The notes under the pieces were generated by a model, which searched no databases, was not told the DNA's origin, and saw nothing but the letters and a program-made list of their open reading frames with translations. From an uncultured Planctomycetales bacterium (GTDB lineage Bacteria > Omnitrophota > Gorgyraeia > Zapsychrales > JANLHA01): a stretch of 64,000 bases of DNA. Made by a program: the position numbers and the translations under genes. How positions within the stretch are numbered: position 1 is the first letter of the stretch; the number at the start of each line of letters is the position of its first letter. This document shows, in pieces, positions 6,001 through 49,711 of this stretch. The stretch covers positions 12,440-76,439 of the forward strand of contig CAYJXI010000005.1 in the NCBI GenBank assembly GCA_964374105.1, written 5' to 3'.

Positions 6001-9000
6001 ATGGAGTCCTTAACAGAGGAACAAAAATTATCCTTTGCCCGATGGTTTTACAGCCAGGCCCCAAAGAATCTGCGTTTTGTTGCAACCAGTTCTAGTGTGG
6101 AAGAAATCAAGTTAAGCCCGGCCGAGATCAACCGTTTTCTCACCGTGAATATCTCTGAAGAATTCAATGCCCTTTGGCTTGAACGCTATCTGCGCCAGCA
6201 TATTTCAACGAAATTGAAACCTTATACGGCGTTGATTGGGAAAATTGTCCGCGAGACGTTTGATTTGTATGTTCAGCAAGCCAGAAATTGGGAGTATGAG
6301 CATAACCGGTTAGGCCGGCGCGATATCGCTGCCTTCTGGGAGCGCCTGGATCAAGAGAGCAGACTGGATGAAGATAAAATTAAGAAATTGGCCTTCTATA
6401 CGTTGGCTATGGGCTTAAGGACAAAATACCGCGAGGAATGGGAAGAGAAAATCGATTACCAGGAAGATTTGGCGGCCGCCAGAGACCAAGAAAGAATAAG
6501 TTATGCCCAGCGGAAGGATGGCATTTATTTGATTGTGGATGGCCTTGAGTTTAAAACCCGGTTGACCAAGATTCCAGAGGAAAAATTTTTAGCCCCTACC
6601 AAGGCCTATGTGCGGCAGTTGGCCTCGATTCTCTTAGGGTTAGAAAGCGGACGGCCTATCATTACGGAAGGGTATCCCGGCGGCGGCAAGACCTCCGGTA
6701 TAGAAGATGCGGCCAAGCGGATCGGGTTAAAATTTTATAAAGATTTAATGTATGAGGATATCGATTTAGGGGAATTTTTAGGCCGGTTGTCCAAAGAGGG
6801 CCAAGAATTTTTGGTCACGGCCTTAAAGCACGATGCGAACGGCCACCGGGTCGTAAAATTTTTGCGCGCTTATGCCGAAGGCGGCATTCACCTTTTGGAT
6901 GAAGGGGCGGTGGGAACAAATTCTCAGGAAGTGATTACCTTTTTAAGTGTGTTGTCGCAACTGCCTGCTATTGATTTAGGTGTTTTTCACCCCGGGTTAG
7001 CAGGCGAGGTCATCAAGAGACACAGGGATTTTCATCTTGCTATTGCCCAGAACCCGGCGCATTCGACCGCTGGGCGGGAAAAGATTTTATACAGTACCGA
7101 TACCTTGGCCCATAAAATCTGGACCGATAACGCCTTAGACCAAGAGGATGCCTTAGCGATTATTAATTATCATCTCGATAAGCCGGACGCTGTTCTTCAA
7201 TCGTTGAAAGAAGAGATGGCCACGATCCACCGGGAATTCACGGATGTCCATCCCCGCAGTGATGAGATAAGCCCGCGGCAGTTGATTATGATTGCTCGTA
7301 TCCTGAATCAGGCCCTGGAGGAAGGCCAGGACCTTGACCGTGCGGCCTTTGAAGGGGTTATGGCCGCCTATTTAACCGGTGTGTCCAAACAAGAATTTGA
7401 ACAAATATGGACAAAGGTGTCAGAAATCACGCAGGGCCGATTCGACCGGTATCTTGAGGAATGGAAAGAACCGATTGATGTGAAGATTAATGACGGATAT
7501 GTCCAGTTTAACGGGATGCGTCTGCCGAAATCTGTACCCAAGGGCAATATCCAACAAAATGACGTATTTATTATTGAGGATCTGCCTTTCGAGAGCCGGA
7601 GTCTGCGGGCCATGGCTTTGGGAGTCTTAATGAACATGCCGGTGGCGCTGTTAGAGGAAGAAGGGGCTGATGCCTTTGATCTTATCAAAAAGTTTGCGTA
7701 TTTAACAGGGTATGAACTGGTGCCTCTGTGGAGCCATCCGCAGATGACCAAGATGCATTTGCTGACAAGTTTACTGCCTAAGTTTGAGGCTCTGATGGAC
7801 CGTTATGGGATTAAACGGGAAGAGGCAGGTCAGGAATTTTTGATGAGTTTAGGGTTTATTGCGCGTTACCTTATGGAAGAAAAGGAATATAACGCCTTTA
7901 ATGAGGAAGAACGCCAGGCCCAAGCACAGAAACTTTTATTCTTCCATTTGATGGACGCGGTTCCGGAACGGCAGCGGGTGATGCTCAATGAGCTCTTAAC
8001 AACGAGCAAGATTCAACTCTTAAACGAAAAGGGAGAGGCGGTCACGTATGTCCTGCCGGAATGGGTCCACATTGTTGTCTCTTCCTCGTTAGAGCATAAA
8101 TTTTCTTCTGCCTTTATTAACCGATTTTTGCCTATTCAGGTCAATACCCTGGAGAATCTGGACGAATTGATCCATGTTATCCAGAACCGTTGGCCCCTCG
8201 TGCGCGAGGAAGAGGTGAGTTGGCTTAAGAAGGTGGTAGGCTTGGTAGTCCGTTATGAAAAACAAGAGGCCTTTGGTCTGCATTACGGATTTAGCCCGCA
8301 GGACATTTATAAACTCGCAGCGCTGATTCATCTGGAGAAACAGCGCGATATGGAAAACAATCGGTTTAATACCAACCCCTTATATTATTTCCTTAAGGCC
8401 ATAACTATTGTTTATGGTCTGGGGTTAGCCGAGGATGATGCGAAGATTTTTGAGGAAAAAATTGTGCAGGAAGGCCTCTTGGGGCCGTTATTGAACACGA
8501 CCGATAAAGATAAACTTGAGGACATCTATGCTCGTCTGCTGGCGCAGATCAAAAAGGATTTGGTGACCTTAGATCGGGAGGTTTATGAAATCCGCATCGA
8601 TGTTTCGCAGCTGGGCGAAGGCGAAGGACTTAAGGTCGCCAATGGCATGAGTATTAAGAGGAATGGCCAGGGGTATATCATCGAGACAGCCGGGGCTAAT
8701 ATTTATCAGGTGAGCGATCAAAATTTGAATGACTGGACTGATCTGACCAAAGGAAACGGGGAGCTCTTGGTCAAACAAGAGGGGGATCATCTCGTCTTTC
8801 AATTGAAGTTAATCAAGAGTATCGGTGGAGTGATTCTGCCCAGAGACGAATTTAACAGGATGAGGAGTCTGCCGGAGAACGAGGTGCCGACGAAAGAATT
8901 TATCCGTTTTACTCCGGAGATGCGTATGTTAGGGGCAGCTGTCCTGCGGGGATGGCAGCCGGTCGAGGATCATTTAGGGCGCCTCCGTCCTCCACGGGTA

Positions 9001-12000
9001 TTGCTCATGAACGGCAGAACCGGAACAGCTAAGACAACATTCATCCGCAATCTTTCGCGCGTCTGGGGCGTGCCGCTTTATATCCTGAATGCCTATGAGG
9101 ATATGAAGGTCTCGGATATGACGGTGGGTTTAAAGTTGGAGGAAGGGAAATTCCAGGTTGGGATCAAGGAATTCTTGGCGAGAGTTGGGAAGATTAACGG
9201 CCAGAGAATCAGTGTCCCTTCCAAAACCACTTCTAACCGCAACATCCTGCTCATTGACGAAGCCAATGCGGCACCGGATATTCTGTATTCTCTAGCGCCC
9301 CTTTTACGCGGCGAGAAAAAGTTTACGGTGGAATATGCGGGCGAGAGTTTTGAGGTGGAGGTTGACGATGAGGTTTTAATCGCCTTGACATTTAATCCGG
9401 CTGAAACTTATGCCGGCAGAGGCGCCTTTGACCGTGAACTGATTGCCCATGCCGAGAAATTGTGGGCCCCGGATCCTTTAAGATATCCGGACTTGACGCT
9501 GATTGACATTTTAAGGGAGTACCATCGCCGAGGAATTACGAAAGCGCAGCAGGAGTTGAAAGAGCAGTTGCCAACCGTAGGTTTGACGATGCACGAGGCC
9601 TTTGCGAAGGTTTCGCCTTATCAAGAGACAGTCAAGAATCTGGAACATCCTGCTCTGGAAGAGCTGGGGAAGGTTGGGGAAGAGGGTCCAGAGAAAACAC
9701 AGGCAACTGAGCCACCGGCAGTTGCCCCGACACTTGAGCCGGCTAGTGTGGCTACACCCCAGGTTGCGGAGATTAGCTATGATGTGAACATCATTAGGAA
9801 GAATGCCCAAGAGTTTACGAAGGATCAAGGGCATCTTGATTTTGCCAGGGACATTCTGGCTGGATTTTTGTTAGCCTTAGGTGACGGCGAGCAGGGGTTA
9901 AATGATGTTGTCCTCAAGGCCGCCAGCATATTAGGGCCGGATGTGGTTGAAATCCTGCAGGACATCGTCAGCCTGTACGGTCGGGAGATTGTTAAAGAAA
10001 GCGAACTGAAAGGGAAGTTTCTTAAATTAAGAAGGGTCTTCATGGCGCATGATGTAGCCCTTTTTATGAAACGGCCGAAAAAGAGGGCTTTGATCATTTT
10101 ATCAACGGAAAAGGTCAAGCGGCGCTTAGCAATGAGCGATGAAAATTTAACTCGGCTGGGAGAAGATCCGGCTAAGTATGCTGATCTTAAGTCTCAGGCC
10201 GCAGTGGTGGGAGGCGAGGAGTATTCACGGCCGGGCGTAAGCGGATTTTTTGAGGGGGAATTTGCCTTTGCCTTTGAGAAGGCAGTTCGCCAGGAGCTGG
10301 CCGCAGCCGGCGTAGAGACTCTTAAAAATGTTACTTTCGAGGAATTTGTGGAATGGGTGGCCTTCCATGAACTTGGGCATGTCATGGATAATTTAAGATT
10401 AAGGGTAAGAGGCTATAAAATCCCGCGGTTGATCCGCTGGACGAAATTAGCGCATGATGTGAATGCCTCTGTCATTGGGTTGTGGCTGTCCGAGAACCTG
10501 GAACTCAATTCAATTCTTTTTCCGTTGATTTTTTCTCCCAAGGCCAAAGAGTATGCCCTTTATGAATTGGTCAATACCATTAGGAAGAATAAGGATAAGA
10601 AAAGTTATTATGTGCAGGCGGCTAAGGGAATTCTTAACGGAATTCTCCTCAAACAAAAAGGTGAGAAAGAACCTTTGATTACGGATGAATTAGAGGAGGA
10701 CCGCATTGACGCAGTAAAGAAGCTAATTGAAGGCCTAACGTCCGAGGAACTCAACAAAATTGCGGTTGAGCTTTATCAACAGCCAAAAGAATATTTGGCC
10801 ACGGCCAAGGCCGGGGCGTATAAGGGCAAGGTCTTGATTAGCGATGGGGGGACAAGCCTTGAGGATATTAACCATGGCGTTGACGGCACCCCGGATGTTG
10901 ATATGGAGTATGAGGATGGGAAAGCGGAAATGAAAATCAAAACCCCCAAAGGCAAAGGCCCGAAGGTCATTGAAGAACCCAAAGGCGGGAAACGTAAACC
11001 CGATGCGGGAGGGAAGAAAGGGCCGAAGGTCAAACCTGAAGATAGTAAAAAGGACGAAAAAGATGAAGAGGAAGAGACTCCTGCAGAAGAAACAGAGGAA
11101 AAGGAACCGGATATTTCGGGAGTTAAGGGAGATATCATTAAGCTCGCCCAGTTATCTCCGGGATTGATTTCGCGGTTTTTGGAAATATTTGCCGGTGTCC
11201 CCAAGATCATCAAGGTCTATGCCGAAAGCGGGGATGAAATCGATATTGAGCGGATTATTACAGGTGACCTGGAACCGTTTTTCCGGCAGAAGATCATTCA
11301 GGCCCTGGCGTCTTTAAGCAGTGGTGTGACTGTGGATATCAGCGGCAGCACGCTTAGTAGGGGTCTGCATGAGGCCTTTGTGCAGATGTCCAAATACTAT
11401 GCCTCCCTATTTTATTATTCGGCTGTGCGTAATAAAGAGGTGGAATTTTCCATCAGCGCCGTCGGCGATTCTTTTCACCCCCTACTGGATTTCCGCGATT
11501 CCCGAAACAAAATGGCGGTGGAAGAGGGATTAACCAAGATATCGACAACAAACGACTATGGGGGAATAAATACCAAAGAGGTACTGGAAGGGCTTAAGAA
11601 GAAATATGCCGACCAGAAGCACAAAAAATATAAGATGGAGATGGTCTTTACAGACGGAGAGGAGACGTCAGGATTGAGTTTTGAGGAATTGCGGCAGATG
11701 GCTGATAGTTTAGAAAAAGAACTGGGGATCGATATTGTTTTTATCGGCCTTAATACGGATGATGTAGAGAATTACTCAAAATTCATTAATCTAAAAAACG
11801 AGGTTTCGGCCGAGCAGTTGGTGGATTTGATTATCCGTATTTCTCTGCTTAAAGTCGAGCGGGGGATGCTGCCCCACGGAAATTTGGCAGAACGGTTTGG
11901 GATGGAAGATAAAGCGGCCAAAGAGGATATTGGAGAAGAGGAATTTTTGCGTCCTGAGTCTGGACTTAAGAAAATCCCTAGCAAAGATTCCGCAATATTA

Positions 12001-12255
12001 ACAAAAGTGTCGGATAATGACCAACCAACACAGCCGCCCGGTGGTATTGATCTTAATCCGATGCATCTTAACTTGGAGATTAAACGGGATTCCCAGGGTG
12101 TGCCTTTGCCCGTGCCTTTACAGCCCATTGAACAGATGAAGATAGAAGGATTTGTTCCGATTATTATTAATATCACCCCCATAACTCGTCTACCCTTTTT
12201 CTTAGGGGCAAAGGAGGAAAATGGGGATCCATCTTTTGATTTAAGCCAGCGCTAG
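1..12255 (+). CDS. Giant multidomain protein A, 5'-truncated by the window (at least 4084 aa). It has helical repeats, three AAA+ (AAA_5/midasin-like) modules, an HExxH motif and a C-terminal vWA/MIDAS domain. It is a paralog of the gene at 13096..27921.
   Basis: Uninterrupted 12.2-kb frame-1 ORF running from the window edge. Walker A GPSGEGKT (4690-4713) with Walker-B-like IFLFNEIN (4882-4905). Walker A GYPGGGKTS (6670-6696) with LLDEG (6892-6906). Walker A NGRTGTAKTT (9001-9039) with ILLIDEANA (9244-9270). HELGH at 10366-10380. vWA MIDAS D-I-S-G-S at 11335-11349 and FTDGEET at 11647-11667. K/E/P-rich linker around 10935-11115. Conserved C-terminal tail at 12034-12183. Collinear with giant B at roughly 50-60% identity from about nt 2860 onward, estimated by eye. 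Confidence 0.85.
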   Translation: MLFILFFGTSNGQSKVIEGYDPITAMRLLYFYFKNYMLRNDKDIQQFGNFVERISSGEFIKERWTALSQLIESAEKGEMDKEFLNLGLLETIASSVGDDGVQGAYRELRRVATYVKTDKVASGIVTAEFLKEYSNEAKGSTSWAYMAIGTLFRAGIDKRYPAEEVRIFLDKLVNKLGDSWIGYQSLDSLVRSILYAKEIDSAVLDLPFLSSLLEFDNPGLVLQAYYHLAKAGVVNKENFEKIKNLFDIINDGIHRFNRSPDQIYQPLKKFIQTVKDKDLNRNVLNMDVLAAVFRNMPGNEDYLEREFTALEHLAETVKAEGLNEVILEPRVLLGSWTGAGTSFAWAAGHLRNLARAVKRGEVDSFVLTSDLLPFMAENLQYDIAYGALLLQAMAEAGFVTSENMKEVKEFITVLGQGIKKFRDDLASSGKLDESGVIPNMLGRLIELFQGYAQKQIDSFAVDFNFLKEFLNPERGRLNDAPANLLALNDFAEVLKRQGIDPKTIQYPIVEGTQLTKWGIQKFILGMGHAKIAPSLDIMSVYLDKGGINAENIKDLLDLGADLGGIVTGSYGLSPEALLEIKYLLKAAGPQVIDIPYLNSLLNTLWHNHYDVKASIPFFTMMGNHGLLRQDNSNGISSWLMGIFHLIKVNSGQQHFSVALEDVLAMLKLMLEHGIVKEDNLKILKEIIKEIPPDNAVHYYKGIEDLVNLGVVKPSDLEELKVLIHNMNKIKELSAPARRADQSYHYVIDLINKVKQENLSPAVLDIKLLNTLLVSLLKNRGDLLINSDLAFSELERLALTIKRERLTPEVFLNRDLLIALVEKANSISVAFHRYQEILIASGHEMSEMILGQILDGINIFYAHGRMSIEEYLNKLPTFRAAWPPSDFIRHSPLYAAVELLENKGSLIEEVEYGTDILLYEMVLRGRVYLLLLPPVLAEQLKGNTAREMLKDINPSNYEEELHLAALFVTLRQDIPLTAGLSYEEFLRIVKGDTTSKYTPIISAYIQKNVFGKVERLNLKQQDQIIALGIALHRAVLGMVKKDGGNENVITFRELIRFNENFSRFYLRDTGLKNVLELFILTATNIYGRVLDTSDKRKEFAKILIKLLEGHRELLGQAQVESEGLRGNLEDVVKNIMLFGDYEHLGRQPQAEEIVPEINIRALVERARQVGSASLLIVDDDNAVVVNSVLTQMSQEEDTVMIRLSMNGFSRRQELFGMYIPKTRLSETEINSQLTAVTEEEVKKALKDILGLKDEEMEAALNEWQKSLILNTNPLLREAVALYLKKGGQWREFMEWQDGLLVKLRDLAKKNPNKKFLLAMENISAAPDGVRLLLNPVLWERMVEIPEKGRRIELPENMNFILTMHKDTVIKDESFMNRPLVQYVPDMTQDDWQKYLTIKTGLPAAEAENLLTIFNQLGTVRFKEAVRFNGHDLLEIAQRIKGVSEEKTVKVPEFLLKEIYDYLLLRLRTPEDREKLTAVVSTFPGFEIQPPVIEVDRERAVVNFDGVQVKVSKAFIDYARRNPQKDFVALMNDRYRYIVTEMEMRLLSQLARATKGYGNKAIQLEGPSGEGKTEIGRVWARLLGFNLRERTINQDTNLSEFRGQIRPTKDGRYELYEPQYLTQIEEARNIFLFNEINTNESGSLYYWLFPEMTGRAEKALGEFAQTSDESIVKTARINQNNLWLFTVNPEANYYGRGMTPPIVSSHVTVFTMAQDLNNLPQVVEGHLRRNGLAKRLKPESLKYVVKRLAALHYHLKQFKAEKRLSSPQDITPRDIISVTDKFKQYLSEKMDPKQALLRAVEEVYVYTWQKGADVQLSRLEVKKFFGRTEQTTALEALTAALKQKERPVMVFGNATNDPQQIREYLKKAEPEAIIKDVPLSYFHRQRHFLGGLMPLAREKKEGLEAKIDALRPPLEEKLGLLPSLIQEARLNPNRTVFVLLYEYSHLNPQVAPLLNEFFQTGRIDGIEEMVTLAISEELINLLAAKGKWQQFREEFPGLLPEEMESLTEEQKLSFARWFYSQAPKNLRFVATSSSVEEIKLSPAEINRFLTVNISEEFNALWLERYLRQHISTKLKPYTALIGKIVRETFDLYVQQARNWEYEHNRLGRRDIAAFWERLDQESRLDEDKIKKLAFYTLAMGLRTKYREEWEEKIDYQEDLAAARDQERISYAQRKDGIYLIVDGLEFKTRLTKIPEEKFLAPTKAYVRQLASILLGLESGRPIITEGYPGGGKTSGIEDAAKRIGLKFYKDLMYEDIDLGEFLGRLSKEGQEFLVTALKHDANGHRVVKFLRAYAEGGIHLLDEGAVGTNSQEVITFLSVLSQLPAIDLGVFHPGLAGEVIKRHRDFHLAIAQNPAHSTAGREKILYSTDTLAHKIWTDNALDQEDALAIINYHLDKPDAVLQSLKEEMATIHREFTDVHPRSDEISPRQLIMIARILNQALEEGQDLDRAAFEGVMAAYLTGVSKQEFEQIWTKVSEITQGRFDRYLEEWKEPIDVKINDGYVQFNGMRLPKSVPKGNIQQNDVFIIEDLPFESRSLRAMALGVLMNMPVALLEEEGADAFDLIKKFAYLTGYELVPLWSHPQMTKMHLLTSLLPKFEALMDRYGIKREEAGQEFLMSLGFIARYLMEEKEYNAFNEEERQAQAQKLLFFHLMDAVPERQRVMLNELLTTSKIQLLNEKGEAVTYVLPEWVHIVVSSSLEHKFSSAFINRFLPIQVNTLENLDELIHVIQNRWPLVREEEVSWLKKVVGLVVRYEKQEAFGLHYGFSPQDIYKLAALIHLEKQRDMENNRFNTNPLYYFLKAITIVYGLGLAEDDAKIFEEKIVQEGLLGPLLNTTDKDKLEDIYARLLAQIKKDLVTLDREVYEIRIDVSQLGEGEGLKVANGMSIKRNGQGYIIETAGANIYQVSDQNLNDWTDLTKGNGELLVKQEGDHLVFQLKLIKSIGGVILPRDEFNRMRSLPENEVPTKEFIRFTPEMRMLGAAVLRGWQPVEDHLGRLRPPRVLLMNGRTGTAKTTFIRNLSRVWGVPLYILNAYEDMKVSDMTVGLKLEEGKFQVGIKEFLARVGKINGQRISVPSKTTSNRNILLIDEANAAPDILYSLAPLLRGEKKFTVEYAGESFEVEVDDEVLIALTFNPAETYAGRGAFDRELIAHAEKLWAPDPLRYPDLTLIDILREYHRRGITKAQQELKEQLPTVGLTMHEAFAKVSPYQETVKNLEHPALEELGKVGEEGPEKTQATEPPAVAPTLEPASVATPQVAEISYDVNIIRKNAQEFTKDQGHLDFARDILAGFLLALGDGEQGLNDVVLKAASILGPDVVEILQDIVSLYGREIVKESELKGKFLKLRRVFMAHDVALFMKRPKKRALIILSTEKVKRRLAMSDENLTRLGEDPAKYADLKSQAAVVGGEEYSRPGVSGFFEGEFAFAFEKAVRQELAAAGVETLKNVTFEEFVEWVAFHELGHVMDNLRLRVRGYKIPRLIRWTKLAHDVNASVIGLWLSENLELNSILFPLIFSPKAKEYALYELVNTIRKNKDKKSYYVQAAKGILNGILLKQKGEKEPLITDELEEDRIDAVKKLIEGLTSEELNKIAVELYQQPKEYLATAKAGAYKGKVLISDGGTSLEDINHGVDGTPDVDMEYEDGKAEMKIKTPKGKGPKVIEEPKGGKRKPDAGGKKGPKVKPEDSKKDEKDEEEETPAEETEEKEPDISGVKGDIIKLAQLSPGLISRFLEIFAGVPKIIKVYAESGDEIDIERIITGDLEPFFRQKIIQALASLSSGVTVDISGSTLSRGLHEAFVQMSKYYASLFYYSAVRNKEVEFSISAVGDSFHPLLDFRDSRNKMAVEEGLTKISTTNDYGGINTKEVLEGLKKKYADQKHKKYKMEMVFTDGEETSGLSFEELRQMADSLEKELGIDIVFIGLNTDDVENYSKFINLKNEVSAEQLVDLIIRISLLKVERGMLPHGNLAERFGMEDKAAKEDIGEEEFLRPESGLKKIPSKDSAILTKVSDNDQPTQPPGGIDLNPMHLNLEIKRDSQGVPLPVPLQPIEQMKIEGFVPIIINITPITRLPFFLGAKEENGDPSFDLSQR

Positions 12256-12316: not shown

Positions 12317-12844
12317 CTAATTTTTTAATAATTCTGTGTGTGTCCTTAAGAAATCTCTCACCTTTTCATTGAAGGGAACAAATACTTGATAGAGCTTTAG
12401 ATCCCCTGGCGCTTGAGGTTTGAGGATGCGGGCGACTCGACTTTTGAATCGAAAGCTTGTGGGGATGAGAGTTTCTTCCTCTTTTTGGAAGCCAATAGTG
12501 ACATTGGTTTCTGTATTAAAAGGAATAAATTTGGGGATACTACAGGAAAGACCGATTAAACTGATATCATTAGTTTGGCAGTTAAAATTTTCTTCAGATG
12601 TTTTAATCTGAACGGGGAATTTAAAATTGAATCGGCGATGACGTCTCTTTTCCGATAAGATGTTATCGGGATTTTTTAAACTCAAACGAAACTGTTTAAA
12701 CCCTTCCCCGTAGCGTTTGATCCAGTCTAAGGTGGCGGTGGCAAATCCAATTTCATATCCTATTTTTTCGCTTTCAATCCATTTGTGTTTACGGATTTCT
12801 AAAATAGCCAGCTCATCTTTGAGAAATGAATACGGATTCTTCAT
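12317..12844 (-). CDS. PilZ-domain protein (putative c-di-GMP receptor) with an uncharacterised N-terminal roughly 65-aa domain
   Basis: 175-aa ORF on the minus strand with a strong RBS (AAGGAGGG) 5-8 nt upstream of the ATG at 12844. It contains the RxxxR motif (RRHRR) followed about 21 residues later by D-I-S-L-I-G, matching the DxSxxG PilZ c-di-GMP-binding signature. The N-terminal segment has a W-x-ESEK-x-G...DW pattern that I do not recognise. Confidence 0.6.
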   Translation of the reverse strand: MKNPYSFLKDELAILEIRKHKWIESEKIGYEIGFATATLDWIKRYGEGFKQFRLSLKNPDNILSEKRRHRRFNFKFPVQIKTSEENFNCQTNDISLIGLSCSIPKFIPFNTETNVTIGFQKEEETLIPTSFRFKSRVARILKPQAPGDLKLYQVFVPFNEKVRDFLRTHTELLKN

Positions 12845-13095
12845 TCAACCCTCCTTCTTTTTAAAGGTTAAACGGATTATATCAGATCGCTTTTTCAAAT
12901 CAAGCGATATTTCAACTTTTTATCGACGGAGAGGATGGGTTTTAAAGAAGTCGAAGGAAATTCATAAAAAGAAATTGGGATATGGCAGACTCACCAGTCT
13001 GATAACCAAATTTGTTATTTATAATAATATATTTTATACTTATTCTGACTCATCTTTTAAATTATCTCAAAATTATTTTAAAGCTCTCATTCAAT

Positions 13096-16000
13096 ATGCG
13101 GATTTCAAAGCCTTTCCAACGATTTGTAGCTTTGTGGGTCTTGATTTCTTTTCTGGGGACCTCAAGCTATGCCCAAACCATATTAAGCCTTCCTGCCCCC
13201 GGCACAATGGTGACCGTAAGTGAAGGGTTTATGCCCCCCACCTTAAGGGGAGTCACCATCCATCCGGATAACCCATTGAGCTTCGACTTTATTTTGGATA
13301 TGGGAGATTCCCAGCTTAAAACGCAAGATCTGGAAAGGGAATCATCAAAACTGATCAAATATTTCCTTGCCTCGTTAACGATCCCAGAAAATGAACTTTG
13401 GGTCAATCTTTCTCCTTACGAAAAAGAGAAAATCATCTCGGATCAATTTGGTTTGACCGAGATGGGAAGGGATTTATTGGCGCAGGATTATATCTTGAAG
13501 CAATTGACGGCCTCACTCATCTATCCGGAAAATGAGCTGGGAAAGAAATTCTGGGATCGGGTTTATCAAAAGGCCTATGAGTTGTATGGGACGACCCAGA
13601 TTCCAGTCAATACCTTCAATAAAGTTTGGATTGTCCCCGAACGTGCGGTTGTCTATGAACAGGGGAATACTGCCTTTGTGGTAGACACGCATCTTAAAGT
13701 CATGTTGGAAGGGGATTACTTGGCCCTCAGTGAAAATTTTAAGAGAAGAAATTTTACGGAAGATCAATTGTTAGACAAAGAGGTCAAAGAGCTCGATCAA
13801 ATGAGCTCAAGTATCGTCAAAGAGGTGATCTTGCCTGAGATTGAAAGAGAGGTTAATGAAGGCGAGCATTTTTCCCAATTGCGGCAGATTTATCATTCGT
13901 TAATCCTTGCCGTTTGGTATAAGCAAAATTTGAAGGAGAGTTTATTAAGCAAGGTTTATGTCAATCAGGGAAAGGTGGATGGGGTGGATATCGAAGATAA
14001 GCAGAGCAAGGAGAAGATTTATGAACGGTACCTCGAGGCCTTTCAAAAGGGGGTCTATAACTATATCAAAGAAGATTACGATGCTCATACAGAAAGTTTG
14101 ATCCCCCGAAAGTATTTTAGCGGCGGGGTTCAGTTCAGCCTGGAAAAGGTCAAAGATCAGGCCATTTTGACCACGGTCAAAAAGAAAGAACAGCTGCCCC
14201 TTGAGTCCCGAAAACAATTGTTAAGACACATCGAACGGGCGCGTCAAGGGCGATTTAATCTGATCGCCGCAACCTTAGCGGAAACAACCGGGGATGCCCA
14301 AGCCTTCTTAAGGAATCACCTCGCAAGGCTTAAGACCGAAGATTCGGATCCTCTTTCCCAAGAGTCACGTTTAAATCAAGGATTATCTGAAATCACAACC
14401 GGATTGATCGGCAAACAGTATGAGGTGACTGATGTCCGCGTTGAAAAAGAACGTCTTATCCTCACCACCAAGGATAAAAAGACCATCTCTTTGAATGTCA
14501 GGGAAAAGAAATGGATAACTCAGGATGAGCTGGTTGCCAGATTCAAAACCGCCTTTACCGGCAATGGAAATTTGAAACTCATCACGGATATTGTCAAATT
14601 GTTGCCGGAAAAAATCCAGGTCTTGACCTTTGAAAATCTAGAAGGAGACCTCCTGGGGCTGGCCTCACGAAAATTAGGACTATTGGCCCTGCATCAAAAT
14701 TTGGCCAATAATCCTACCGCCCTTTTTCATGAAATCGGGGAGTTCTTGGGACAGAGTGAGGGAGAGGCACAAGCTCCTTTGAATCTGGAATTTAAGATCA
14801 CCAAAACTCAAGCCAAAACTTTGGGGTTTCTTTATGTCCGTGATCAAAAGGGGAGGGCCATGAGAAAGCTTGCCGTTGAACAACCAGAAGTCGTGGATCT
14901 TTTTCAAAAGGGGCCTAAGAATCATCATTACTTATTGAGGGGCATGCAAAGGATTCTCTTACCACAAGAGGATAAACAATTGTCCATCGAGATTAAAAAG
15001 GCCTTGCATGAAGAGGAGCTGAAAAAGGAGACCAGGGCTGTATTTAAGCGAATCGAGGAAGAGGCAACAGGCAACGTCTCTCTCCAAGATAAATTGACAA
15101 ACGATCAAGCCCAAATCAAAGAGATCCTTGACCTTTTAACTTTGGCTTATCTTGTTAGTCAAAGGGCGGTTGAGAGGGACTCTTTGAAGGCGATTTTTAT
15201 GGGAATCCTTCAATCCGATTCTAGCGAATTTAGGAATTCAATTTATGAATCATTGAAGAATCTTGGGCGATCAGCCATCTTAGAAGAGCTGAATCCACAC
15301 CTTATCCGTTATGATATTCTTGCCCGCCTGATTTCAAAAGGAGGAGAGCAAAGTCCTCTTTTGATCAACATCACCCGATCCTTTGCGCAAGCGAGAATTC
15401 TGACGGGAGACAACCTCGATAAATTTGAATTTCTTATGCTCAACGTTATCCCATCGAATTCTAAAAGGGGAGAGATCTATCAGTCTTTGTTAAAGCTCTC
15501 TGAGCTAGCTCTTGAAGAACTCGATTCCTATGTGATTTTAGGAATTCTGAATTTAGACTTCATAAGACAAATTTTAGATGAGTTAAAACAAGATACACCG
15601 AAGGCGCTTAAGATATTAATTGGATTAACCCAATTAGGAGTCATCACCCAAGAAGCTAAAAGGGATAAACTGAAAACCTTAAAGGCCCTCTTCAGCGGCC
15701 GTGATACAGAAAGGTATCGAAAACAGAAAATTTATGATAGCCTCCTTCATCTTACAGAGACATTTGCGGAAAAAGGGTTAAATCCGCAAATTCTTGATTT
15801 AGAAATCATCCGAGCAGATTTTCTGGCGATATCTAAAAATTCTGATGTCGCCATGGACACTTTTCTTGCCTTGACTGAGATAGGTTTCATTGAACCAAAG
15901 ACACTTAAGAGAATTAGTGGCCTTCTATCCACCCTTGGCATGGGTGATTATAATTCAAAAGACAATTATGACTCTTTGCTGAAATTAGTTAAAGCCGTTA

Positions 16001-19000
16001 AAACAGAAGACTTACCTTCCCAGTTGTTGGATTTTGATTTGTTGAGTACAGTTATCAGTTCTTCTAGGCTAGGTTCCCATCGAGTTCTTGACATGTTATT
16101 AGAAATGGGAAGGGCGGTTAAGACCAATGGGGTAAACCCTGTCATTGTCGATTTAACTCTGCTTAAGGCAGTATTGAATCATTCTCCTTGGCATTCTCAT
16201 GATGTCTATAAAGAAATCTTAAGTTTGGCGGAAACTGTTAAATCTCATAATTTACCTGTTGGAACCCTTTCCAAAGATACCTTAATGAGTCTCCTTGAAT
16301 ATACAAAGATAAATGCAGGAAAAGGAATTCAAATTTTGAAGGCACTTGCTATAGGCGGGGCCATCAAATATGGCGAACTTGATCGCGTAAGAGGTCTTTT
16401 TGTCATTTTTACCGGACAAGATTCGGAATTTTATAATTCTACTTTGCAACACATAGAGGAATCAATCCGGCTCCAATTGGACCCAGTTGTCTTGGACTTT
16501 GATTTGATGAAAAATATCTTTATGCAGAAAATAGCTCCTATTGATTCCAGTTTTAGGGCTTTAAGGGAATTAGCCGAGGCGGTCAAAACAAAGGGGCTGG
16601 ATCCCTCCTTATTGGATGTGAGGTTGCTTGGGGTCGTCACCAAAAAAGAACGGCCCGGATTAGCAGAAATGATTAACGGCTTAAAGACATTGGGAGAATA
16701 TGTCAACAAATACCACTTAGCGGATTTAAAGCACAATATTCTCGATGTCGAACTGCTTAAAACAATCGCAGAGGAAGCGGATGAGAATATTTATAAAAGT
16801 CTGGCCATGTTAGCCAGAACCGTCAAAGAGAAACACTTGGATGAAATAGCGTTGGATCGGGAACTTCTCATCGACATCATTCGCCATTCCAAAGGTTTTG
16901 CGACGGCCAAGCAATTGGATCTCCTGAGCAGTATAGCCAAAGCGGGGCTTCTTTATCCGGATAACCTAGAAAGATTTAAGGATTTTATCAGACAAATTAA
17001 CGAGTTGAGAGAATCCTTTAGAGACGATTTTTCGCAGATTTTTGAAGCCATCGCTGGTTTATTTGATTCCGCTCAAAAAGGGGAGATCAATGAATTCATC
17101 ATTGATTTTGATTTAATTCTTGGGATTTTAGAAAGATCACCAAAACCGATTTCTATTCTTAATTCCCTTAAGGAGATCGGCAAGGCGGTTAAGGTCAAAG
17201 GAGTGAACTTGACCGTGAAAGGCCTTGAGGGGCCGTCAGCGCAAGAACAGGAATATAATTTGGCAACAAAACTGATCCAACAATCGACACATACGGCCAC
17301 TATTCACAAATCTTTGGATCTTTTAACTGAATTGATTGAAAGCGGGTTTGTTCAGCGTGACATCAAACAGGCGGCTCGGTTTATTGCGTTGGTTAATGAG
17401 GATTTGTTTGATGTTTTGATAGAACTCCTTCGAAGTTTTCGAAAGAAAAATGTCAATACCTCGGTCTACGATCCGGATTTTATTTCCCAAGTGATTTCCA
17501 TGACTAAAGACGCAAATGTCTATGGGATTGAAGCCTTAAAGGAGTTGGCAGAAGCGGATATGTTGATCGAGGGTCGGAAAGAAGAAATTATGACATTTTT
17601 CCAAGATATTACTAACATTGTTAAAGAAGAGTTTAGAGCAGATGCCTTTCAGGTTTTAAGTCACTTTATCAAATCTTCAGTGATTAAGTTCGGTCGTTTT
17701 AAAGAGATCATTGATTTCTATAACAAAATTAATAAGTTAAATAATCAGCCTTGGCCTTATCAGGCAATTTTGGCTTTGGATAAAGTTGGTCGAGTAAGAT
17801 TCGAGAATTTAAAAGATTTAGAGACTTTGCTGTTGATCATTGATCAGAAAACCTCTTCTTATGATTATTTAAATTCTATCATTTCCTCAACACAATATGT
17901 CAAAGATAACGAATTGGCCACCGTCATCCTTGAACCTAAATTATTGACAGAAATCCTTGCCAAAGAAATTTCCCATCCTGAATTTAAAAAGATTCTCGAT
18001 CAATTGATCGAATTGGCCAAAGTGATTAAAAGGAAAGATATTCCCATTCAATTGGCTATCCATTTGGATTCCTTTCGATATATTTTTGGGAATTTTGCTC
18101 CAAACTATAGCCTAGAAATTTTTAAATGGTATACGGACTTTCTCAAAGAAAATAGTGAATCGCTTAACTCTGTCCTCATAGAAGGTATTTGGGATGGGAT
18201 GAAACTCGTTAAGACAATCAAGGAAGAACAAGGTGGTGAGGGTCAAAAGGAAGTCTCCCAATTTTTAAATTGGTTTAGTTCGCATTTTGTAAAGGATAAA
18301 GAATTGTTTCCTTTGCATTTTAGTTTCAAGACATTTGCCGAGGAAGGCAAATTTACAATTGACCGGTTTTCGGTTGAGAACAATCTGTATTTACTCCCTA
18401 CCGAGATCCGCCAAAAGATTAAAGAAAAAGGATTTGAAGAGATCTTAAAAGAGGTAAATCCCTCCAATTATCTTGAGGAAGTTTATGCCGCCTCACTCTA
18501 TGTGGCTTTACGTCGAGATGTACAGGTTGCCATCGGTTTGACCTTTAAGGAATTCTTGGAGATCTTAAACGGAAAGGCCAATTCTCCCTTTAGTTCCCTC
18601 GTGACTTCCTTGATACAAAGAAAGGTCTTTAAAATGGAATTGGAGCTCACCCCCAGCCAGCAAGAACAAATCATTACTTTAAGTATTGCCTTGCATAAGG
18701 CCATGTTAGATCTCTTCCATGAATCGGCAACAAGCGGAAGCGTCACCTTCCGTGAGCTTATTCGATTCAACGTCAGTTTCAGTAAATTTTATTTGCAACA
18801 GATTGGGTTAGAGAATGTGATCGAGTACTTTATTTTAACCGCCTATAATATCTATGGCCGAATTATTGATACCCAAGAGAAAAAAGAAAAGTTTACAAAG
18901 GCCATGATCGGACTTTTATATTCAGATAAGTTTAAGCTTTTGCTGGGACAGGCGCAAATTGAATCCGAGGGAATCAGGGGGAAAATCTCCGAAATTATCC

Positions 19001-22000
19001 AGAATATCGTGGATTATGCGGATTATACGGATTTGAAACGCTTACCCCAGGAAGAGGAAATCCCCTTAAAAGTCACCATCAAGGCCGTGATTGAGCGGTC
19101 ATTACAGACAGACAGTGCTCCCCTCCTAATTGTTGATGATGACAATTCCATCCTAGTCGAGGAGGTTTTAGAAGAGTTGAGCCAACAAAAAGATACTGTC
19201 ATGATCCGCATCACGATGAATGCCTTCAGCCGGCGGCAGGAGTTGTTTGGCATGTATCTGCCTAAAAAGCTTTTGTTGGAAAGGCAAGTCAATGCGCTTG
19301 TTGAGACGGCCCCCCAGAGCGATATTCAAGCTGCCCTCAAAGAGATTTTGGGGTTAAAAGAAGATGAGGTCGACTCTTATTTTAAGGAATGGCAGAACAC
19401 CTTGAGTTTAAGGGAAGACCATTTTCTGCGTCAGGCCATAGCCACCTATTTGAATAATAAAGAAGATTGGCGTCAATTTATGGAATGGAAAAACGGGGTT
19501 TTGGTCAGGTTAAAGGAGAAGGCCAAGAAAGACAAAAAGAAAAAGTATCTCATCAATCTCGATAACATCTCCGCCGCCCCGGATAGTGTGCGGCTCCTTT
19601 TGAATCCTGTTTTGTGGGAGCGAATGGTGGAAGTTCCTGAAAAAGGAATGCTTTTAGAATTACCCTCTAATTTGAATTTCATCATGACCATGCATAAGGA
19701 TACAAAAATCATCGACGACGCATTTATGAACCGTCCCTTAGTCCAACACGTTGCCCCTTTGAGTCAGACAGATTATATTCGTTATTTGACAAAAAGCGTC
19801 GGCCTTCAAAAACAAGTGGCCGAACATCTATTGGGAATATTCTCTGAGATTAAAAGACAAGGATTTTTCGAAGACCCGAGACTCAATTTTCATGATCTTA
19901 TCGAAATCGCCAAACGTGCGACACGGGTTTCCTTAGAAAATGATTTGAAACAGGAAGATGTCCTTTTTAAAGAAGCCTTTGATTACCTGTTCTTAAGGAT
20001 GAGGAATGAAAAGGATCGAGACAATTTGAAAAAAATCTTGTTCAGTGACAAAGAGCAAGGTCTTTATCATCCTCTTAAGATCACCGTTGATCGAGAGAAT
20101 GGTGAGATCAACTTTGATGGGGTGAGGCTTAAAGCCTCACCAGCATTCTTGGGTCATTTAAAAGAAACCCCCGAAGCTGATTTTATTAAATTGATGAATG
20201 ATCATTATGGATATATCGTGACGGAATTAGAGATGAGTATTCTTTCTCAGTTGGCGCGTTCCATGAAATATGGTAACAGGGTCGTTCAGTTGGAAGGGCC
20301 TTCCGGGGAAGGGAAAACGGAAGTCGGCCACGTCTTTTCTAAGCTCATTGCTCTTAATCTGGTTGAGCGCACAATCAATCAAGAGACAAATCTGTCAGCA
20401 TTCCGCGGGATCATTCGGCCCACCAAAGCAGGGCGTTATGAATTGTATGAGCCGGTGTATTTAGAACACATTGAAGAGGGCGGGAATTTATTTTTATTGA
20501 ATGAGATCAATACCAATCAATCGGGGGGATTGTATTATTGGCTGTACCCTGAGATCACTCAGCGTGATCACAAAACATTAAGTGAATTCGCTGACATAAG
20601 CGATGAGTCAATCGTCAAAAGGGCCCGGATCGACCAAAATAACCTTTGGCTGTTTACCGTGAATCCGTATGGGTTTTTGGGGCGCGGCATCACTCCTCCC
20701 ATTATCCCCTCCCAAGTCAGTATCTTTTATATGGCCCAGAATCCCGATTCCCTTCCCGAAGTCATCCGCGGTTATTTTGAACGAAACGGTTTACGTGAAG
20801 TTCTTTCCGGTGATTTGTTCAAAGAATATGTGGATAAATTGACATCCATCCATAAGGCCTTAAGAGAGCTTAAATTCACCTATCGATTGCGTTCTCCCCA
20901 AGACATTACCCCACGGGAACTGATCAGTGTCACAACAAAATTTCGCAACTTCATGGTAGAGGAAAAATTAACGCCTAAGGGAGCCTTCCAACGCGCCGTT
21001 GAGGAAACTTATACTTATGTTTGGAAGAATTTAGAGGATATAAAACTGGTGCGTTCGCTGGTCAATGAGATCAATGGGCATGCGGGAAATACGTATCAGG
21101 ATAGAGCGTTTTTGAATAGGGTTGTTGTCGAAGCAACTCGGCCAGTGATGATCTTTTTAACGGCCGCCAATGATCTTACCCAATTGGAAGGATCCATCCA
21201 GGAAAAAGATCCCAAGGCCCAGCTTTTTCATATTCCGTTAAGCTATTTTCACCGCAACCGGCAGTTTGTAGGAGGATTGATTCCTAAGGGGGAAAAAAAG
21301 GTTTTGAGCGGCCGATGGAAAGAAGTCCATCAGTTGACAGCGCAGTTAGAAGAGGGGTTAGGGATCATCCCGGAATTGATCAAAGAGGCGAGGTTTAATC
21401 CCGAAAGAAACATTTATGGCATTTTATATAATTATACGCATCTTAATCCTCAAGTGGCTCCCTTATTGAACGAATTTTTCCAGAAAGGATACTTAGAGGG
21501 AATCGAGGAGCTTATCACCTCAAGGGTCAGTGAGGAATTGTTAAGGCAACTGAAATCACAACCTCAAACCATTTGGCAACAACTCCGAGGAGACTTCGCT
21601 GGCAGTCTTCCCGGGGAGATTGAGCAATTGTCAGATGAAGAAAAACTTTCCTTTGCGCGGTGGTTTTATTCAAAAGCACCCCGGAATTTACGATTCATCG
21701 CAACAGGCTCGAGTGTAGAAGAAACCAGTTTAAGTCCGGCCGAATTGAATCGCTTCTTGGCGGTTAATATTTCTGCAGAAATGGACCTTGAATGGTTAGA
21801 GAATTATTTGGGAAATAAAATAAGTCAAAATGGCTTGGATGCTTATGAATCACAGATCAGTCAAGTGGTGATTCCCGCCTACCAATTCTATCAGCAACAA
21901 ATGGCCCTTTATGAATACGACCACAATCGTTTGGGGAGAAGTGATGTTGATGCTTTTATTGAAACCTTGAAGGAATATCCCAGCCTCAATCCTTCTCTTA

Positions 22001-30617: not shown

Positions 30618-31190
30618 ATGAAAAATAGGGTGCGAACAATTCTGTTATTTATTTTTTTGATGATGATCTTTTCTCTAACAAGATCATCTTATTCTTTCGG
30701 ACAACTTTTCTTTTTCGAGAATCCATTGATAGGCAAACAAGCTCCGGATTTTACCTTGAAGACATTGAGTGGCAAAAGTTTGAATTTGAATCAATGGCGT
30801 AAGGGAGATCCCGCTATTGTATTTTTTTGGGCAACGTGGTGCCCGCATTGCCGCCAGCAGTTGGGGGAGTTAAATGATCAGAGTCAGCAGATAGCGCAAA
30901 AGGGGATCAAACTTATCTTGGTCGATTTGGGAGAGGAAGCCAAAAAGGTGCGCTCTTATATGGAGAAGAATCAATATTCTTTTGATGTTTTTTTGGATGA
31001 GGATTCCTCCGTATCAGAAAAGTATGGAATTATAGGAGTCCCCACTTTCTTTTTCGTTGATAAAGCTGGGATCATTCAAGCGGTGGAGCATGCCATTCCG
31101 GAAGACTATGACAAGATTTTTTTAGAGGAAAACAAAGGCGAAATTGAAAAGGGGGTTGAAGGTAAGAAAGAGGTTAAAGATAAGACGTAA
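30618..31190 (+). CDS. Periplasmic thiol:disulfide oxidoreductase of the TlpA/ResA/DsbE thioredoxin family
   Basis: 190-aa protein with a signal peptide/TM (ILLFIFLMMIFSLT) and a thioredoxin fold with WATWCPHC CxxC active site. RBS AGAGAGG upstream. Confidence 0.75.
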   Translation: MKNRVRTILLFIFLMMIFSLTRSSYSFGQLFFFENPLIGKQAPDFTLKTLSGKSLNLNQWRKGDPAIVFFWATWCPHCRQQLGELNDQSQQIAQKGIKLILVDLGEEAKKVRSYMEKNQYSFDVFLDEDSSVSEKYGIIGVPTFFFVDKAGIIQAVEHAIPEDYDKIFLEENKGEIEKGVEGKKEVKDKT

Positions 31191-44171: not shown

Positions 44172-44202
44172 CAGATCCAATGCGAACTTTTATAATCACC
44201 TC

Positions 44203-46527: not shown

Positions 46528-46586
46528 TTTTAAACAAAGTAAAAATTTAACAATCAAAAAGTCAAGAAAAATAAAGGAGGACTATT

Positions 46587-47117
46587 GTGAAAAATCTAAG
46601 ATTAGTGATTTTACTTGTAGGGAGTGTTTTCGTTTTTAATTCATTAGCGCTAGCCCAAACCTCAAATTTAAAAAAGGTTGGATTTTTAGACTTAAGCAAG
46701 ATTTTTGACAGTTATGAAAAAACCAAAGAGTATGATGCAATGCTGGAAGGGAAACACCAAGAATATGTTAAGCAACACAATCAGAAGATGGAAGAAATCA
46801 ATGAGAAGACAGGGAAATTGGCCCTTCTCAAAGATGATGAGAAAAAAAAGATTCAGGATGAAATCGATCAGAAGAAACGGGAACTGGCCGAGTTTGATCA
46901 GGCGGCAAGGACGGATTTGACCAAACAGCGCGACGAAAAAATCAGAGAAATTTTATTGGAAATAGAAAAGATCGTTAGTGATTTTGCCAAGAAAGAGGGT
47001 TATGATATGATATTAAATGATCGTGTTCTTATTTTTGGCAATGAGCAAATGGATGTGTCTGATCAGATATTGAAAGTCTTAAACGAAGATTATAATAAAA
47101 AAGAAGAGAAGAAATAG
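46587..47117 (+). CDS. skp: Periplasmic chaperone Skp (OmpH family)
   Basis: GTG start 6 nt after an AAGGAGG RBS. Signal peptide LVILLVGSVFVFNSLALA. Coiled-coil K/E-rich body typical of OmpH/Skp. Canonical position between bamA and lpxD. Confidence 0.7.
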   Translation: MKNLRLVILLVGSVFVFNSLALAQTSNLKKVGFLDLSKIFDSYEKTKEYDAMLEGKHQEYVKQHNQKMEEINEKTGKLALLKDDEKKKIQDEIDQKKRELAEFDQAARTDLTKQRDEKIREILLEIEKIVSDFAKKEGYDMILNDRVLIFGNEQMDVSDQILKVLNEDYNKKEEKK

Positions 47118-47127
47118 TTCTTAAACA

Positions 47128-48189: not shown

Positions 48190-48227
48190 GGAAATTTTTA
48201 AACTAAAATACACCCCGGGAACTCCCC

Positions 48228-48265
48228 ACACACCCGGTGTTTGTCTTAACAAACACCGGGTGTGT
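48228..48265 (+). terminator. Perfect 17-bp stem-loop (ACACACCCGGTGTTTGT-CTTA-ACAAACACCGGGTGTGT) between lpxD and lpxC/fabZ
   Basis: Seen directly. It lies 39 nt after the lpxD stop and is followed by GTTAATTTGA, only weakly U-rich. It could be an intrinsic terminator, an attenuator or an RNA-stability element. Confidence 0.4.
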
Positions 48266-48313
48266 GTTAATTTGACCTAATTAAAATTTGATAAGAAAAT
48301 CAGCATAAAAACA

Positions 48314-49642: not shown

Positions 49643-49711
49643 GTCTGATAAAAAATTAGTGTATAATAAAAACCAACTTTTGAAATTATCCTATCAACTT
49701 TTTAAAAACGT

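Follow-up and report, generated by a model that had tools for sequence, protein, structure and literature searches.

Giant proteins have been described in the phylum Omnitrophota ('Archaeovorins'; 10.1101/2023.11.21.568195, 10.64898/2026.06.07.730766) as long multi-enzyme chains that carry signal peptides and are encoded with a small pilZ gene nearby; the domains that prediction places on the outside include AAA_5, NUDIX, HAD, GGDEF, methyltransferase, glycosyltransferase and HEAT. In the earlier report (West-Roberts et al. 2023, 10.1101/2023.11.21.568195), most domains are predicted extracellular, AAA_5 is among the twenty most frequent and some of the predictions are called 'highly unlikely'; the 2026 preprint (10.64898/2026.06.07.730766) gives similar topology calls for long proteins of the phylum. 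Here we analyse giant B, a protein encoded in a stretch of 64,000 nucleotides (hereafter the window) from an uncultured bacterium assigned to Omnitrophota (contig CAYJXI010000005.1, positions 12,440 to 76,439), together with its neighbour, giant A. An earlier sequence-only reading had remarked that B combines a Sec signal peptide with three ATPase modules, whereas ATP is not available outside the cytoplasm. This localisation paradox proves genuine, the leader being conserved and the ATPase sites intact, and it applies to a whole family of proteins. B is a further case of the known exported Omnitrophota mega-proteins, with the differences that it has no transmembrane helices and counts 4.9 thousand residues rather than more than 30 thousand; it reveals an export signature at the level of the family, by which the localisation question can be tested directly.

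1-12255, + strand: giant A, truncated at its 5' end by the window edge; 4,084 residues or more; tandem paralog of giant B
13096-27921, + strand: giant B, start ATG 13096, stop 27919-27921; 4,941 residues

Other described systems resemble parts of B or of its family. Midasin (Rea1) is one giant polypeptide whose six AAA modules, of the AAA_5 class, form a ring, with a midasin-type lid (AAA_lid_7), long and partly acidic linkers and, after a linker, a C-terminal von Willebrand factor A (VWA) domain with a DxSxS metal ion-dependent adhesion site (MIDAS); it is presumed to work by pulling on a ligand. The bacterial MoxR-VWA pairs (RavA-ViaA, NorQ-NorD, CbbQ-CbbO) contain AAA_5/AAA_3-class modules with a Walker A of the form G-x-x-G-x-[AG]-K-T, coupled to a VWA/MIDAS partner. 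Two-partner secretion passengers (TpsA, FHA, CdiA) start with a Sec leader and, directly behind it, a conserved domain a few hundred residues long, and are very large and cysteine-poor, with a variable remainder ('conserved head, polymorphic body'). Type IX secretion cargo of Bacteroidota has a Sec leader that often exposes Gln (the 'Q-rule'; PMC5837995, PMC10653852) and a small conserved C-terminal sorting domain.

The translation from ATG 13096 (MRISKPFQRFVALWVLISFLGTSSYAQT…) opens with MRISKPFQRFVALWVLISFLGTSSYA|QT, the bar marking the predicted cut.

13096-13173, + strand: signal peptide of B, residues 1-26; n-region MRISKPFQR, h-region FVALWVLISFLG, c-region TSSYA; predicted cleavage A26|Q27

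Sec/signal peptidase I leaders were recognised by a rule-based check, i.e. a charged n-region, an h-region of about 7-16 residues and small residues at -3 and -1. All of these are present in B: the n-region has a charge of +3 (R2, K5, R9), the h-region counts 12 residues, and the site reads S-Y-A|Q, so that S stands at -3 and A at -1. The arrangement is shared by homologs with complete N-termini: 181 of the 192 show the pattern [small]-x-[small]|Q, at a set distance of 29-37 residues from a conserved motif of the domain that follows, and the remaining 11 have AxA-type sites as well. Position -1 is A in 95% of the 181 (96% in the logo subset of 160), position -3 is A, V, S or G, position -2 is occupied by a bulky residue, mostly Tyr, and a P stands at -6 in 64%. 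The median charge of the n-regions in the family is +3, and the homologs' h-regions are of about 16 residues. The twin-arginine motif of a Tat signal (S/T-R-R-x-F-L-K) is absent from the n-region of B (MRISKPFQRF), most homologs having a single aromatic-Arg pair there; a lipobox for signal peptidase II, which would end in a Cys at +1, is ruled out, because B has no cysteine anywhere. Nor does B contain any further hydrophobic 19-mer at a Kyte-Doolittle mean of 1.4 or above, so that a second membrane span able to bring the cargo back to the cytoplasm is predicted to be absent. The canonical signal peptide proposed in the sequence-only reading is thus confirmed, as far as conservation and tripartite structure can tell, as a genuine Sec/signal peptidase I leader and as a family-wide trait.

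That reading had also envisaged a true start further downstream. This is excluded: residues A26, Q27, L32, P33 and G36, all of which precede the next in-frame methionine (M38), are conserved in at least 90% of homologs. An upstream in-frame TTG at 13012 was rejected too, as it adds only an AT-rich, non-conserved extension; as weak evidence, a promoter-like site at 13012-13040 would start the transcript downstream of this codon. B lacks a Shine-Dalgarno motif, and likewise about half of the window's genes. AlphaFold2 (AF2) renders the leader as a helix. As to the glutamine at +1, the 'Q-rule' of Bacteroidetes is reported to be specific to that phylum. A phylum-wide rule of this kind in Omnitrophota was not retained: a crude scan of Omnitrophota loci gave 47 further putative signal peptides, of which no more than 13% had Gln at +1, which makes its near-universal presence a property of the family of B, judging from these sequences. 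Read by eye, Gln is also exposed at the cleavage sites of three other window proteins: Skp (46587-47117, ALA|QT), BamA (44095-46527, VFA|QP) and a TlpA-like protein (30618-31190, SFG|QL).

The amino acid composition is evidence for export that is independent of the leader. Giants A and B together contain no cysteine in 9,025 residues (4,941 in B and 4,084 in A), against 97 in the 10,047 residues (0.97%) of the other 30 open reading frames (ORFs) of the window (P~1e-38); read in its two remaining frames, B contains 92 and 142 TGT or TGC triplets. That the whole proteome of the organism lacks cysteine is contradicted, within the window, by this very content of the neighbouring genes; in a grouping of the counts per ORF, the seven envelope proteins have 0.25% cysteine and the rest 1.25%. 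In the family, cargo and tail contain 0.07% cysteine over 200,826 residues, with none in the cargo of 93 out of 153 proteins, and 151 of the 157 cysteines present in leader plus N-terminal domain lie within the first 45 residues. An independent set, seeded with the C-terminal tail described below, gives 0.04%, compared to 1.08% in 199 neighbouring ORFs. Cysteine avoidance is known in proteins that leave the cytoplasm, especially in those that cross the outer membrane unfolded. Since the exclusion covers the AAA modules like the rest of B, it points to export of the whole chain and, since cysteine is tolerated in the leader and almost nowhere else, to removal of the leader.

What the family shares, in addition to the leader, are an N-terminal domain and a C-terminal tail, which we call bookends; short junction motifs lie next to them. 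The corresponding features of the two giants are as follows.

13174-14130, + strand: N-terminal bookend domain of B, residues 27-345, QTILSLPAPGTMV…RKYFSGG; Omnitrophota-specific, about 320 residues
14155-14172, + strand: junction hexapeptide DQAILT of B, residues 354-359, 9 residues past the N-domain
14380-14994, + strand: extension after the N-domain of B, residues 429-633; 32% identity to residues 422-617 of the homolog P0036 (E 1e-18)
27634-27651, + strand: second junction copy of B, DKAILT, residues 4847-4852, 2 residues ahead of the C-tail
27658-27834, + strand: C-terminal bookend tail of B, 58 residues, PPGGIDLNP…GFVPIIINITPIHNLPNIFGG; fixed length, with invariant G, G, I, D, G, P, P, G
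11986-12003, + strand: junction motif of giant A, single copy, ahead of its tail
12034-12207, + strand: C-tail of giant A

With the first 460 residues of B as query, 1,598 significant proteins were found (top E 1e-143). An exhaustive search with residues 27-345 gave 8,055 cluster representatives; 6,310 of these matched at E-values below 1e-30, and the names are mostly Omnitrophota. In these representatives the N-domain always starts at about residue 35-50, in proteins ranging from about 400 to 4,969 residues; the extension that follows it in B is common to some other members. The domain is covered by no Pfam or NCBIfam model and has no match in PDB by structure or sequence comparison; its AF2 model (predicted local distance difference test, pLDDT, 71.7; predicted template modelling score 0.71) is a mixed alpha/beta one.

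The 58-residue tail ends A, B and most full-length members of the family. Its consensus is GGID(L/F)NP-x2-L-x-L … G(F/L)-x-P(V/I)I-x2-(I/V)-x-P-x2-N(L/F)P-x-(L/F)LG, after which comes a short acidic extension. Here again Pfam and NCBIfam have no model, and a profile of the tail matches nothing in PDB. A metagenome scan based solely on the tail revealed 80 loci. Among the ORFs with a tail, 53 have their 5' end within the locus, and 48 of these start with the N-domain; we therefore consider head and tail, on sequence grounds, to be coupled. Of the five others, at least two seem to be family genes broken by a frameshift or a gap in the assembly. The orthologs of B retain the bookends (leader and N-domain in P0250, C-tail in P0251). 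The AF2 model of a short complete member, P0102, has a mean pLDDT of 51.9, with values of 52-79 in the C-tail segment.

The general architecture is therefore a leader, an N-domain of about 320 residues, a variable cargo and the 58-residue tail. B has all four features of the family, namely the small-x-A|Q leader, the N-domain, the GGIDxNP…G[FL]xP[VI]I tail and the near-absence of cysteine; A has the three that are visible, its N-terminus being outside the window. The D-x-A-I-L-T motif exists in exactly two copies in B and one in A, and related motifs (D-x-A-M/I-L and SSSP-I/V) are about 6-10-fold enriched at cargo borders among 122 family members; these may be processing or linker sites. This very large family from Omnitrophota is apparently undescribed: a keyword search of the Omnitrophota giant-protein papers found no mention of the N-domain, the C-tail, the cysteine exclusion or a cargo like that of B described below. 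Next to the genes of the 80 loci no recurrent partner was found, the best being menaquinone genes in 8 of the 80; the gene of one member, P0077, is located among housekeeping genes.

The cargo of the family, as annotated from sequence, varies greatly from member to member, and most of it is of a kind found in the cytoplasm. Among enzymes there are protein kinases, ABC1, PfkB, PP2C, GT2, GNAT, S-adenosylmethionine (SAM) methyltransferases, MobA-like transferases, NUDIX, HAD and GGDEF/EAL; further members carry DnaJ, Response_reg, HATPase_c, HEAT or ankyrin repeats, peptidases of the M48, M3 and M28 families, or a GH116 glycosidase. Since so many of these depend on nucleotides or other cofactors, the problem of finding ATP or a cofactor at the predicted location is one of the whole family and is not peculiar to B.

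Several observations concern the tail and its surroundings. In one metagenome locus (L028, 3675-5543) an enolase is fused, via SSPI-containing linkers, to the family tail, with no signal peptide, N-domain or upstream ORF; the fusion has no cysteine in 623 residues. It hints that the tail may function without a Sec leader. In another locus (L062), a single in-frame TAA (2302-2304) interrupts what seems to be one long family gene without cysteine codons, leaving pieces of 767 residues (cut by the locus at its 5' side) and of 2,098 residues (with the C-tail); an error of assembly, a pseudogene and readthrough are all conceivable. Many members have an acidic stretch past the tail and several end in …(F)SLSQLN or …VSSLN, A itself ending in …FDLSQR; such a recurrent motif at the extreme C-terminus may be a third short signal. 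A candidate leader-less and cysteine-containing member (P0255) corresponds to an ORF that runs off the 5' end of its contig.

Between its bookends, B contains the following regions.

15013-18375, + strand: Leu-rich region with low Pro and Gly, residues about 640-1760 (about 1,100 residues), delimited by composition and motif spacing
19048-20085, + strand: module D1, AAA-like without P-loop, plus a midasin-type lid; match to AAA_5 profile positions 54-125 (E 5.5e-4) and to AAA_lid_7 at residues 2260-2315 (E 2e-3)
20218-21165, + strand: module I2 (module 1), P-loop AAA_5; Walker A GPSGEGKT at residue 2401, Walker B LFLLNE (N-E), sensor-1 TVNP
21193-22155, + strand: module D3, degenerate, homologous to D1 and D5 (hhalign); LNRF motif
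22198-23295, + strand: module I4, P-loop AAA_5; Walker A GEPGGGKT at residue 3064, Walker B LFLLDE, sensor-1 AQNP
23323-24495, + strand: module D5, degenerate, homologous to D1 and D3 (hhalign); INRF motif
24568-25440, + strand: module I6, best-preserved AAA_5 (E 1.8e-19, residues 3853-3987); MoxR-type Walker A GLTGTAKT at residue 3857, Walker B LLIDE, sensor-1 TFNP
25801-26355, + strand: conserved region with a zincin-like HELGH (residues 4310-4314, 26023-26037), charged D/E- and K/R-rich linkers on either side
26980-27420, + strand: VWA domain, residues 4629-4775, MIDAS motif DVSGS at residue 4631 (PF00092, E 2.2e-8)

The AAA_5 match of I6, together with weaker ones on I2, I4 and D1, places these modules in the MoxR class of AAA+ proteins. 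The three P-loop modules are mutually homologous (hhalign E 5e-13 to 7e-5; probability of 97.9% for I2-I4) and so are D1, D3 and D5 (E 9e-6 to 7e-5); D3 and D5 are linked to AAA solely via D1, through its partial AAA_5 match and its lid. These relations emerged by profile comparison, a self-BLAST of B revealing no internal repeats. A profile of the AAA region retrieved only six partial homologs, all from metagenome bins labelled Omnitrophota or Elusimicrobiota, and a genome scan gave one locus. In every one of these seven orthologs that covers them, Walker A, Walker B, the sensor-1 Asn and a nearby Arg are invariant. Since overall identity is only 35-48%, the ATPase sites of I4 and I6 appear to be intact and under purifying selection, and not decayed. 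The N-E of the I2 Walker B is invariant as well, the motifs of this module being the same in the 7-8 orthologs that cover it.

Thus, the three apparently intact P-loop modules of the sequence-only reading stand, and the N-E in place of D-E that it had noticed in module 1 is indeed what the sequence has. Its idea of degenerate, non-hydrolysing modules survives in part: it is not supported for I4 and I6, where GK[ST], D-E, the sensor-1 Asn and the Arg are all invariant, and it is possible for module 1. A loss of all catalytic residues, also considered at that time, is not what we see, as Walker A and B, sensor-1 and the candidate finger arginines are invariant across orthologs.

The simplest reading of the triplicated degenerate-plus-active pair is that the modules probably form a six-lobed ring within one chain. 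The xNRF motifs of D3 and D5, and MNRP of D1, resemble the DRF motif of MoxR-class modules, and the arginines that the degenerate modules contribute in this way probably complete the active sites. Farther downstream, an HExxH is found in A (residue 3456), in B and in the homolog P0252, within a conserved block (…FEEFVDWIALHELGHVMD…). The region has no Pfam match; it suggests an unannotated zincin-like metalloprotease module standing between the AAA ring and the VWA domain. The charged linkers around the HELGH and VWA regions are 18-21% D/E, and a homolog search with the C-terminal third of B returned nothing, probably because it was swamped by low-complexity words. On the N-terminal side, the Leu-rich region contains a motif, 'L(D/N)P..hLDh.LL', repeated between residues 817 and 1340 at spacings of about 40 residues or multiples thereof, and is probably a helical-repeat scaffold; the ortholog P0250 lacks the whole stretch, its N-domain being joined almost directly to the AAA region. 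The cargo of B as a whole can be described from its motifs as midasin/MoxR-like, with three (degenerate + active) AAA_5 pairs, an HExxH and a VWA/MIDAS domain. An anti-phage defence ATPase was considered and rejected, the PADLOC matches being only at the P-loop level (IetA 23.5 bits, mad8 21.5 bits).

When B is set against the systems outlined above, the likeness to midasin extends to the single chain, the module class, the lid, the linkers and the DxSxS MIDAS of the C-terminal VWA, and presumably to the mode of action. However, only three modules of B have a P-loop, alternating with three degenerate ones, and B is bacterial and apparently exported, with a signal peptide, an N-domain, a C-tail and an HExxH, and without cysteine; a search of PDB at E<=1 recovered no midasin or dynein chain, hence orthology is not indicated. 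The best, though very weak, PDB matches of B are to NorQ. Still, the known MoxR-VWA systems are cytoplasmic homohexamers of subunits of about 300 residues with a separate VWA protein, while in B everything is fused, predicted to be exported and interspersed with dead modules. With regard to two-partner secretion, the family cargo consists of globular enzymes rather than a beta-helix and there is a conserved C-tail. In addition, B has no match to the secretion domain of these passengers (Haemagg_act) in Pfam or NCBIfam, and no gene for a TpsB transporter adjoins family genes; the sole Omp85-family gene of the window is that of the housekeeping BamA, 16 kb away in a Skp-Lpx cluster. Compared to type IX cargo, the family possesses an extra N-domain and belongs to another phylum, and type IX substrates are classical extracellular enzymes or adhesins, not nucleotide-dependent ones. 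No Pfam or NCBIfam match to a type IX C-terminal domain was found over residues 4560-4941, where only VWA and a sub-threshold Radical_SAM (E 0.014, 16 bits for a cutoff of 29.5) appeared.

How, then, could an exported machine work? In the scheme that we favour, the leader would guide the chain, still unfolded, through SecYEG, with signal peptidase I cutting after A26, a step for which there is support. The most likely role of the bookends would be that of a module common to the family, for sorting, anchoring or delivery, which brings the cargo to the cell surface or beyond. Because the catalytic residues are conserved, the machine would need ATP, the most likely source being another cell; the protein would work at an open junction between predator and prey (or host), or would be delivered into that cell, where a target held by the MIDAS domain would be pulled or remodelled by the ring. 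The literature provides a background for this: Omnitrophota are inferred to be predators or parasites, with ultra-small cells (PMC10066038), and, for Ca. Velamenicoccus archaeovorus, micrographs are cited in which the cytoplasm of the predator is in open contact with that of its victim, and a transfer of molecules is suggested (PMC13153191). We put the chances that B is exported, with bookends serving for sorting or delivery and ATP coming from a prey or host cell, at about even. A broader version, possible rather than probable, is that leader, bookends and cysteine exclusion mark an undescribed, phylum-wide export and delivery pathway through which thousands of nucleotide- and cofactor-dependent enzymes, among them kinases, methyltransferases, glycosyltransferases, a J-domain protein and the midasin-like motor of B, would act in or on the cytoplasm of prey or host, the border motifs being processing sites that release the cargo.

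Several points weigh against the scheme. Export is deduced from sequence logic and composition. A folded AAA ring of about 560 kDa is too large for known outer-membrane secretins. The supply of ATP by another cell is purely conjectural and argued from observations in a different Omnitrophota species. Going by the invariant N-E of module 1, one site or more may bind ATP without hydrolysing it. Finally, no conserved neighbouring secretion gene was found at the family loci, and neither the N-domain nor the C-tail has relatives by fold or sequence.

In one rival explanation, B would be exported and need no ATP outside: its AAA modules would be rigid scaffolds of a surface adhesin or coat protein, or domains in it that carry no nucleotide or only sense one, and VWA/MIDAS, HExxH and helical repeats would be the working parts. 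The evidence for export is the same as in the favoured scheme, module 1 has an invariant Asn instead of the Walker B Asp, and half of the six modules no longer have any P-loop. Outside cells, VWA domains and zincins are common modules. One study (PMC10066038) proposes that giant proteins of Omnitrophota serve as a surface 'coat'. We nevertheless regard this explanation as unlikely, for GK[ST], D-E, the sensor-1 Asn and the arginines of I4 and I6, invariant at 35-48% identity, are hard to explain without catalysis, and the kinases, methyltransferases, glycosyltransferases, DnaJ and receiver domains found across the family cannot all be scaffolds. Alternatively, the proteins might be targeted to outer-membrane vesicles of the producer, or to a compartment inside it that is bounded by a membrane, where nucleotides are available. 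Signal peptides feed intracellular compartments such as the anammoxosome in some related bacteria of the Planctomycetes-Verrucomicrobia-Chlamydiae group, vesicles are known to deliver enzymes to prey in other predators, and a shared sorting module would suit such a route. It seems very improbable to us, as we know of no report of a compartment with lumenal ATP in Omnitrophota, and nothing among the window genes indicates vesicle or organelle machinery. The reported ultra-small size of the cells (PMC10066038) also argues against it.

The two remaining explanations, both raised in the sequence-only reading, would keep the protein on or inside the producing cell. Under one, the leader is an uncleaved signal anchor that tethers B to the inner membrane with its entire mass in the periplasm. 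The leader is indeed N-in by the positive-inside rule, the h-regions of homologs reach about 16 residues, and membrane-anchored topologies are often predicted for long Omnitrophota proteins in the 2026 preprint (10.64898/2026.06.07.730766). But the h-region of B is of 12 residues only, the helix-breaking Pro at -6/-7 and the A at -1 (95% in the family) fit cleavage by signal peptidase I, and cysteine is distributed as expected for a part that is removed; besides, the ATP problem would remain. We therefore deem a permanent anchor quite improbable. Under the other, B is not translocated at all, its hydrophobic N-terminus being a peripheral membrane tether or a part of the N-domain, and the ATPases stay in the producer's cytoplasm, which is the usual location of AAA+, kinase, methyltransferase, DnaJ and receiver domains. 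The leader modelled as a helix and the enolase that carries the C-tail without a leader would agree with this, as would the 'highly unlikely' that West-Roberts et al. apply to some extracellular predictions. It would, however, leave without reason both the (-3,-1)|Q site conserved at a fixed distance from the domain and the near-total exclusion of cysteine (none in A and B, compared to 0.97% in their neighbours) from types of cargo that normally contain it, when cysteine is present in the leaders; nor is there a second membrane span to hold the cargo inside. A cytoplasmic location accordingly has, in our estimation, a low probability.

What looked like the oddity of a single protein thus becomes a question about a family, since more than 8,000 cluster representatives share the leader and N-domain module. 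It touches on how Omnitrophota, which are widespread, uncultured, ultra-small and thought to be predators or parasites, attack other cells. It also offers a testable handle on the 'cytoplasmic' domains in predicted extracellular regions, which published work has recorded with some puzzlement, as leader, head, tail and absence of cysteine mark one export class, at least one member of which is predicted to be a conserved AAA+ machine with intact catalytic residues. If the class is delivered to other cells, it would amount to an effector system of a new kind, unusual in the richness of what it carries, and B would be the first midasin-like motor known to be used outside its producer; if the proteins stay periplasmic, there would be ATP-dependent chemistry in the periplasm, which is equally unexpected. 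In either case the bookend domains merit family models, so that annotation can recognise the class.

With respect to the genomic setting, giant A aligns with residues 935-4921 of B at 45% identity, hence the two are considered tandem paralogs, and its cargo is of the same AAA/HExxH/VWA type. Nearly all named homologs of both are labelled Candidatus Omnitrophota or Omnitrophica. Other features of the window are these.

12317-12844, - strand: small PilZ-domain gene, 175 residues, between A and B (PF07238, E 5.9e-10)
44095-51446: outer-membrane/lipopolysaccharide biogenesis cluster, with BamA, Skp, LpxD, an LpxC-FabZ fusion, LpxA and LpxI

The genes downstream of B include those of RmuC, GlmU, PrsA, DnaB, BamA, Skp, LpxD, LpxC-FabZ, LpxA, LpxI, a LolC/E-like permease and ClpB. 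The presence of BamA, Skp, the Lpx proteins and the permease indicates that the source organism is diderm, and lipid A synthesis is predicted to proceed via LpxI. The PilZ protein has the RxxxR…D/NxSxxG signature, and a good promoter-like site precedes its gene at 12903-12876. Small pilZ genes that adjoin Omnitrophota giant genes are noted in an earlier study (10.1101/2023.11.21.568195); in our tail-seeded metagenome scan, a PilZ neighbour was present in only 2 of the 80 family loci. Tandem pairs of family genes on the same strand, like A and B, exist in at least four other, unrelated metagenome contigs (L064, L065, L066 and L077).

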